Assembly: GCA_009784575.1 (NCBI GenBank)
Contig: WRBK01000003.1
Span: forward strand, 46,749-110,748
DNA from: Defluviitaleaceae bacterium
GTDB lineage: Bacteria; Bacillota; Clostridia; Lachnospirales; WRAX01
Direction of reading: 5' to 3'
Length of the DNA stretch: 64,000 nucleotides
The position numbers and the translations under genes are program-made. Below, piece by piece: positions 45,002 through 45,238 of the stretch; the first letter of the stretch is position 1, and each line of letters begins with the position of its first letter. Under the pieces are notes generated by a model that was not told the DNA's origin, made no database searches, and saw nothing but the letters and a program-made list of their open reading frames with translations.

Positions 45002-45238
45002 ATGAAAAAAATTAGTAAAGACATGCTAATAAACGATATTTTGGCTGTGGATAAACGTATAGCTATGATATTAATGCAAAATGGTATGCATTGCGTTGGC
45101 TGAGGGGCGGCAGCGCATGAGTCTCTTGTAGAGGCTTGCCAAGTCCATGGTATGGACTCCGAAAAATGTGATGAACTAGTAAATGGTATCAATGCTTTCT
45201 TGGCAAAATTGGAGGAAGCAGAAGCAACAGCAGAGTAG
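45002..45238 (+). CDS. Small DUF1858-like redox-disulfide domain protein with in-frame TGA at the second Cys of CxxC (candidate selenoprotein, or pseudogene)
   Basis: AGGAGG (44987-44992) lies 9 nt before the ATG. The ORF reads MKKISKDMLINDILAVDKRIAMILMQNGMHCVG-[TGA 45101-45103]-GAAAHESLVEACQVHGMDSEKCDELVNGINAFLAKLEEAEATAE* in a single frame. Homologs as I recall read GMHCxGCP..ESLEEA..HG. Confidence 0.55.

Follow-up and report, generated by a model that had tools for sequence, protein, structure and literature searches.

The closest described relatives of the gene reported here are the Sec-containing members of the 'DUF1858 domain-containing protein' family (PF08984), which is a listed prokaryotic selenoprotein family with a CxxU motif, U being selenocysteine (Sec), and with WP_012065717.1 as its exemplar (Zhang et al. 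2022, PMC9312934; Zhang et al. 2026, PMC13188914). Both reviews cite Zhang & Gladyshev 2008 and Peng et al. 2016; DUF1858 is not discussed explicitly in the main texts of these two papers, and the listing rests on the tables of the two reviews. We have analyzed a gene of this family in a 64,000-nucleotide stretch of DNA from a Defluviitaleaceae bacterium (assembly GCA_009784575.1, contig WRBK01000003.1, positions 46,749 to 110,748; called the window below, with all coordinates counted from its first letter). Positions 45002-45238 form one gene, in which the UGA at codon 34 is very probably decoded as selenocysteine, giving the motif C31-V-G-U34, as judged by sequence comparison. The gene is a previously mis-annotated selenoprotein gene of an already catalogued CxxU family in an uncultured Clostridia lineage, and its nearest relatives come from metagenome-assembled genomes (MAGs) of Defluviitaleaceae and Clostridiales. 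As the DUF1858 CxxU family is already listed in the reviews, the gene represents no new selenoprotein category.

With the published CxxU family the window gene shares the Pfam domain and a Sec residue at the last position of the CxxU motif, a comparison that uses the listed features of the family and not the exemplar sequence. Its architecture is the same as that of Sec-type members from Alkaliphilus, Lachnospiraceae, Oscillospiraceae, Syntrophomonadaceae and Defluviitaleaceae, but it deviates from the usual Sec-type form in the G-A-A-A that follows Sec (P-x-x is commoner), in the UGU loop of a downstream RNA hairpin (GGA in most members) and in its position downstream of a signal peptidase I gene. 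Cys-type DUF1858/TIGR03980 proteins (2K53, which is C. thermocellum A3DK08, and 2K5E) have their length, their fold and the motif GMHCxGC...E[ST][LI]E.A..HG.D in common with the window protein. Their genes, in contrast, carry TGC or TGT in place of TGA; the Cys-type ortholog does not form the hairpin, and few Cys-type controls do (among the matches listed). Other small CxxU selenoproteins (SelW-like, AhpD-like and GrdA; PMC2398784) are likewise short, place Sec at the end of the CxxU motif with a Cys three residues upstream, and are presumed to be redox proteins. Their fold is, however, unrelated, as the window family is small and all-helical, not thioredoxin-like. A weak fold likeness (template-modelling (TM) score ~0.49, probability 0.35) connects the family with the ScdA_N-type N-terminal domain of YtfE/RIC (5FNY, 5FNN); this match is not significant and has no sequence match beside it, and we take it as a lead for function, not as membership.

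The window gene contains 33 sense codons before the TGA (MKKISKDMLINDILAVDKRIAMILMQNGMHCVG, ending in ...NGMHCVG) and 44 in-frame sense codons after it (GAAAHESLVEACQVHGMDSEKCDELVNGINAFLAKLEEAEATAE), up to a TAG at 45236-45238 with a TAA immediately 3' (Table 1). A preliminary description of the locus, made from the sequence, had read an AGGAGG, a 9-nt spacer, an ATG, the TGA at 45101-45103, 44 further codons and the TAG, and all of these coordinates were verified. The motif in the ribosome-binding site (RBS) region (AGGAGGAAG) is also kept in the Cys-type ortholog (L001). We searched the protein, with Cys substituted at the TGA (U -> C), against family hidden Markov models (HMMs). DUF1858 (PF08984) is matched in a single stretch (residues 4-55, E=3.5e-14, 53.1 bits versus a cutoff of 32.2, profile positions 1-57 of 59), and so is TIGR03980 ('hybrid cluster protein-associated redox disulfide domain'; E=8e-20, 70.6 bits versus a cutoff of 44.95, profile positions 1-58 of 58). 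Both family models match across the TGA, and homology thus continues through this codon. The DUF1858-type identity proposed from the sequence, and the hallmark motif given with it, are correct, both models being matched above their cutoffs.

Aligning homologs, as the preliminary description had proposed, places a Cys at the TGA column in every case (6/6 protein-database homologs), within the motif GMHC-x-G-C. The window motif GMHCVG-U-GAAAHESLVEACQVHGMD agrees with the family pattern G-[ML]-H-C-x-G-C followed by E-[ST]-[LI]...H-G-x-D, and the invariant alignment columns are G28, H30, C31, G33, position 34, E40, V48, G50 and D52. The nearest homolog (P0001) is a Cys-type protein that is 72% identical and syntenic, its gene being located directly downstream of a Peptidase_S26 gene. 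At codon 34 the DNA of this Cys-type ortholog reads TGC and that of the window TGA, which is the sole difference in the codon. Alignment and conservation thus bear out the earlier placement of Sec at the second Cys of a CxxC motif; the label 'resolving Cys' that had been attached to this residue goes beyond what is established for the DUF1858 family.

To define the distribution of Sec-type genes, we scanned one genome per species from 185,579 GTDB species with the degenerate pattern G-x-H-C-x-G-TGA-(5 codons)-E-(8 codons)-H-G. The scan returned 83 loci (L008-L090), compared with ~4 expected by chance, and ~70 of these code for DUF1858 proteins of full length, in which U takes the place of the second Cys and the downstream frame is intact and conserved. 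Almost all of the ~70 belong to Clostridia (Lachnospiraceae, Oscillospiraceae, Alkaliphilus, Syntrophomonadaceae, Negativibacillus and Defluviitaleaceae); 13 matches were set aside as spurious, being junk translations mostly from non-Firmicute genomes. Five Sec-type relatives, from three Defluviitaleaceae MAGs (L085, L057 and L025, with 85, 64 and 62% protein identity to the window, respectively) and two Clostridiales MAGs (L016, 77%, and L064, 58%), were compared with the window gene at the DNA level. The ratio of nonsynonymous to synonymous substitution (dN/dS) 3' of the TGA is 0.07-0.3 at a dS of ~1-1.6, which is near saturation, and the upstream half is similar. Low dN/dS at near-saturated dS indicates that the part behind the TGA is translated and under selection. 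We rejected the reading of the locus as two separate small open reading frames (ORFs; 33 aa, and 28 aa from an ATG at 45152), since homology and purifying selection are continuous across the TGA. The adjacent signal peptidases share 71% (L085), 70% (L016), 60% (L064) and 58% (L057) identity with that of the window, and the signal peptidase of the Cys-type ortholog (L001/L002) shares 60%. By this measure the Cys-type ortholog is as close to the window as L064 and L057, and a switch from Sec to Cys, or from Cys to Sec, may have occurred recently in the lineage.

Downstream of the UGA we located a hairpin (hairpin 1, Table 1) that is a candidate selenocysteine insertion sequence (SECIS). It is formed by the H-E-S-L-V-E-A-C codons, and its UGU loop has G at position 2, followed by U. 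The stems noted earlier (GGCA/TGCC at 45109-12/45137-40 and GTCTCT-tgt-AGAGGC at 45121-35) are present and lie within the local minimum free energy (MFE) fold. The bacterial SECIS model specifies a loop of 3-9 nt, an upper stem of 4-16 bp, G in the first two loop positions, a UGA-to-loop distance of 16-37 nt and an MFE <= -7.5 kcal/mol (PMC13188914). Hairpin 1 fits the limits on loop, stem, G position and spacing, and in energy the core by itself is borderline.

Seen in comparative context, hairpin 1 is a conserved SECIS-like stem of the family. In most Sec-type genes a hairpin of 6-10 bp, with a triloop that begins with G, is located 23-29 nt after the UGA and within the codons of the conserved motif, and 24 of 70 genes rank in the top 5% when compared with synonymous recodings of themselves, where 3.5 are expected. 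By sequence, the Sec-type genes divide into at least three putative SECIS classes, each laid over another version of the conserved peptide motif: GAGUCUCU-GGA-AGAGGC on E-S-L-E-E-A (+23 from the UGA), AGCAUC-GGN-GAUGCU on S-I-G-D-A (+24) and UUGAGCA-GGG-UGCUCAA on E-Q-G-A-Q (+29). The stem GAGUCUCU/AGAGGC is invariant in 6/6 Sec-type subfamily members, synonymous third positions included, and the flanking codons vary; across this six-member subfamily the hairpin 1 helix is 96% paired. The Cys-type ortholog has GAA TCA TTA GCC CAA at the stem codons and forms no stem.

As a natural control we used 98 unique metagenomic genes of the Cys type, among the matches listed, in which the peptide reads E-[S/T]-L-E-E-A, and a hairpin model that allows no bulges. 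The controls use 79 different codon 18-mers (among the matches listed). A model-compliant hairpin of <= -4.5 kcal/mol is found in 15 of the 18 peptide-matched Sec-type genes versus 17 of the 98 Cys-type genes among the matches listed (Fisher P=1e-7), and the hairpins of all Sec-type and all Cys-type genes, again among the matches listed, differ with a Mann-Whitney P=5e-14; both tests count phylogenetically related sequences as independent, and the Cys-type set consists of the matches listed and is not exhaustive. The -7.3 kcal/mol of the window hairpin is reached by 2% of the Cys-type controls among the matches listed.

These two properties of the statistics weigh against Sec decoding by way of hairpin 1, and several further observations do so as well. 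The hairpin 1 core has an energy of -7.3 kcal/mol versus -7.5 kcal/mol in the model and passes only together with the lower stem. Among synonymous recodings of the same peptide, 9.6% are as good (P ~0.10, not significant). The loop is UGU in the window and GGA in most family members, hairpin 1 shows no covariation among the subfamily sequences, and a permissive Rfam search of 45060-45200 gave no match with any family, a negative that carries little weight. The whole-region folding z-score is -0.5; with this value and the P of ~0.10, the caution of the preliminary description that the hairpin is not compelling alone was well placed. The Sec machinery likewise speaks on the negative side: selA, selB and selD are absent from the Pfam results on 40 long ORFs of the 64-kb window, the window contains no tRNA-Sec (ARAGORN found no tRNA at all), and the next 10 kb past the window end, on a near-identical 87-kb contig, contain housekeeping genes only and no Sec machinery. 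The flanks of 60 related loci were likewise free of Sec machinery, and their only tRNA genes, in five loci, were those for tRNA-Glu and tRNA-Lys. When the literature was searched for the use of Sec by Defluviitaleaceae, only irrelevant 'Selenomonas'-type matches came up. From the joint conservation of the TGA, the downstream frame and the hairpin we infer that the lineage decodes the codon-34 UGA.

A second hairpin (hairpin 2, Table 1) is common to the three nearest relatives, and two of its base pairs have changed in a compensatory manner (A-U to G-C; C-G to U-A). Covariation support is weak (11/500 shuffles), and the distance of 45 nt from the UGA exceeds the published range of 16-37 nt. Family-wide, hairpin 2 is found in 11 of 69 Sec-type versus 6 of 98 Cys-type genes among the matches listed (P=0.07, not significant). 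The Negativibacillus group (L011, L013, L019, L069, L078, L083) is without hairpin 1 in the 16-37 nt range, and its sole strong hairpin is an 8-bp stem with a GGN loop in the V-H-G-V-D codons, ~45 nt after the UGA; in L048, L082 and L054 neither hairpin is clear. Of the Cys-type genes among the matches listed, 6-17% already carry a compliant hairpin by codon chance. It is conceivable, if on the unlikely side, that for this reason the family, with a SECIS in the codons of its conserved motif, is pre-adapted for repeated single-nucleotide Cys<->Sec switching and that hairpin 2 represents a long-spacing SECIS class or one part of a two-part SECIS.

In the mechanism that we favor, which follows the standard bacterial pathway, a ribosome would arrive at the UGA while a SelB-GTP-Sec-tRNA(Sec) complex binds hairpin 1 just downstream, and the bound complex would cause Sec to be inserted in place of termination. 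The SelB-binding hairpin would consist of the codons for the conserved E-S-L-x-E-A motif. To place the resulting Sec residue in a structural context, we modelled the Cys-type ortholog P0001 as a proxy for the window protein. The model is all-helical (predicted local distance difference test score, 88.6), with C31-x-x-C34 on a short helical turn (residues 30-33) that is followed by a loop. It superposes on the uncharacterised nuclear magnetic resonance structures 2K53 (TM 0.87) and 2K5E (TM 0.81) and matches 2FI0 weakly. On this turn Sec34 and Cys31 may cycle between a selenol/thiol pair and an intramolecular selenenylsulfide, making the protein a small redox module. Judging from the other associations of the family, the module probably acts in the response to oxidative or nitrosative stress or in a pathway related to metal centres.

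There is no family-wide conserved neighbour among the ~70 Sec-type loci, and neighbourhoods are lineage-specific. A Fur-family gene and a rubrerythrin gene are found near the Sec-type DUF1858 gene in 6-9 Lachnospiraceae loci. In L015, L020, L037, L039, L043, L059, L082 and similar Lachnospiraceae loci the Fur-family regulator and rubrerythrin lie within ~2-3 kb, with a MecA-like gene just downstream. The Lachnospiraceae neighbourhood hints at a link of the DUF1858 gene with oxidative stress. DnaB and L9 genes occur near the Alkaliphilus-type Sec loci. The name of TIGR03980 derives from a genomic association with hybrid cluster protein, an association that the HMM does not require; there is no hybrid cluster protein among the scanned window ORFs of at least 200 aa (five such ORFs lie outside the scan). 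Cys31 and Sec34 are best interpreted as a selenenylsulfide redox couple that would serve a stress- or metal-centre-related partner.

A different function, compatible with Sec insertion, would be that of a metal site, with Cys31 and Sec34 acting in a metallochaperone or as cluster ligands, much like the GMxCxxC motif of heavy-metal-associated (HMA) domains. GMHCVGC resembles this motif, and residues 27-42 produce a weak HMA match, but at E=0.14 the match is far under threshold. The weak likeness to the N-terminal domain of YtfE, an iron-centre repair protein, the Fur-family and rubrerythrin genes that adjoin family relatives in Lachnospiraceae, and the naming of TIGR03980 after hybrid cluster protein all point in the same direction. 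Most CxxU and UxxC selenoproteins are, however, redox proteins (PMC2398784), and no metal-related partner adjoins the DUF1858 gene in the window, and we consider a metal site doubtful compared with the selenenylsulfide couple.

With respect to decoding, the TGA could mark a pseudogene or nonsense allele, in which a single TGC-to-TGA mutation cut a Cys-type DUF1858 gene to 33 residues and left the downstream frame undecayed. The TGA is indeed one nucleotide away from the TGC of the syntenic ortholog, public gene callers annotate the 33-aa product alone, and Sec machinery is seen neither in the window nor in the 10 kb beyond it. Yet the TGA is kept at 58-85% protein identity, with synonymous sites near saturation and a downstream dN/dS of 0.07-0.3, it is kept in ~70 species, and only the TGA forms have a SECIS-like stem whose synonymous sites are conserved. 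Loss of function at this codon is therefore very unlikely.

We regard as similarly improbable that the UGA is read through by other means, be it near-cognate insertion of Trp or Cys or a lineage-specific codon reassignment. Conservation of the downstream frame shows continued translation, not which residue is inserted. The aligned residue is, however, always Cys, the classical partner of Sec, the hairpin fits the SelB-type SECIS model and DUF1858 is catalogued as a selenoprotein family. In addition, TGA terminates 23 of the 71 long ORFs in the window, well-annotated genes among them, and on this ground we also rejected an alternative genetic code in a TGA-reassigned genome. A sequencing or assembly error at a true TGC or TGT codon, for which only the prior that single-base errors occur can be cited, is dismissed: the same TGA, and not TGC or TGT, is present in four independent datasets (ENA ERZ27257297, Logan SRR5215140, JGI 3300010369 and Logan SRR10512952) that are 99.85-100% identical to the window over 3-20 kb, identical in DNA through the gene, and record the 33-residue truncated product. 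The four datasets represent one strain-level population sampled four times; they exclude sequencing error and do not add evolutionary depth.

The Sec-type gene thus predicted is preceded by a signal peptidase I gene, and the two probably form one transcription unit (Table 1). A signal peptidase I gene is located upstream of the DUF1858 gene also in L085, L016, L057, L064 and L025 (at a contig end) and in the Cys-type ortholog L001.

Table 1. Features of the DUF1858 locus, in window coordinates
Feature	Coordinates	Strand	Remarks
Signal peptidase I (Peptidase_S26), directly upstream	44385..44972	+	Pfam PF10502, E=5.5e-39; 195 aa called on near-identical ENA contig
Shine-Dalgarno AGGAGG, 9-nt spacer to ATG 45002	44987..44992	+	read off sequence
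Complete coding sequence, DUF1858/TIGR03980 protein, 78 residues (M1 to E78, U34)	45002..45238	+	ends TAG then TAA
TGC codon, Cys31, first residue of C-V-G-U motif	45092..45094	+	alignment column invariant
In-frame TGA, predicted selenocysteine codon U34	45101..45103	+	aligns with invariant second Cys of GMHCxGC
Extended fold: hairpin 1 and lower stem (GGGCGGCA with UGCC..GUCC), 7-nt internal bulge	45105..45146	+	MFE -15.9 kcal/mol (45104-45148)
Hairpin 1, predicted SECIS core UGAGUCUCU-UGU-AGAGGCUUG, 9-bp stem, 3-nt loop	45118..45138	+	23-nt spacing from UGA
Hairpin 2, AGUCCAU-GGU-AUGGACU, 7 bp, GGU loop	45142..45158	+	-6.8 kcal/mol; 45 nt after UGA, Q-V-H-G-M-D-S codons

Directly 3' of the DUF1858 gene lies a 42-aa ORF (45254-45382, forward strand, with a GTG start and an AAGGAG RBS) that is conserved in no relative. 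At ~45437-45462 there is a GC-rich stem, GGCGTAACCC-aaac-GGGTTGCGCC, which has a short T run only and was not called by the terminator scan. Pfam searches on 40 long ORFs and a scan for in-frame TGAs with a nearby Cys or a strong hairpin revealed no further credible selenoprotein gene in the window. The sole match of the in-frame-TGA scan, a TGA at 30115, was rejected because it is out of frame with its amidase gene (28821-30173). A 14-bp hairpin (-15.8 kcal/mol, ~30147-30178, forward strand) overlaps the end of the amidase gene and probably serves as a terminator or in regulation, not as a SECIS.

The window has a GC content of 42% and contains Firmicutes-type housekeeping genes (RsmB, RlmN, PP2C, PASTA kinase, RsgA, Rpe, HisS, AspS and PurK). 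Its sole Rfam match at the gathering threshold is a class A RNase P RNA (49030-49385, reverse strand, 280.6 bits), which is overlapped by two spurious long ORFs on the forward strand (48323-49048 and 49008-49388). A large same-strand cluster at 13107-28691 (reverse strand) encodes several Hsp70-like paralogs, which are divergent and of which one carries a fused VWA domain. The same cluster encodes proteins with DUF5716 and DUF5717, a protein of 629 aa that ends in a GrpE domain, a TPR protein and a 4Fe-4S protein. From its predicted products, this is an unusual, non-canonical chaperone-like gene cluster.

At least four public assemblies give the DUF1858 gene wrongly as a fragment of 33 residues, and the same truncation by standard gene callers is to be expected for the ~70 Sec-type genes in species-representative genomes. 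Called correctly, the window gene provides an uncultured Clostridia lineage with a further selenoprotein, with the implication that Sec is decoded in this lineage. For the DUF1858 family, of which two structures have been solved, the recurrent presence of Sec at the second Cys argues for a catalytic or redox-active residue at this position, and thereby provides a concrete functional hypothesis for the whole family.

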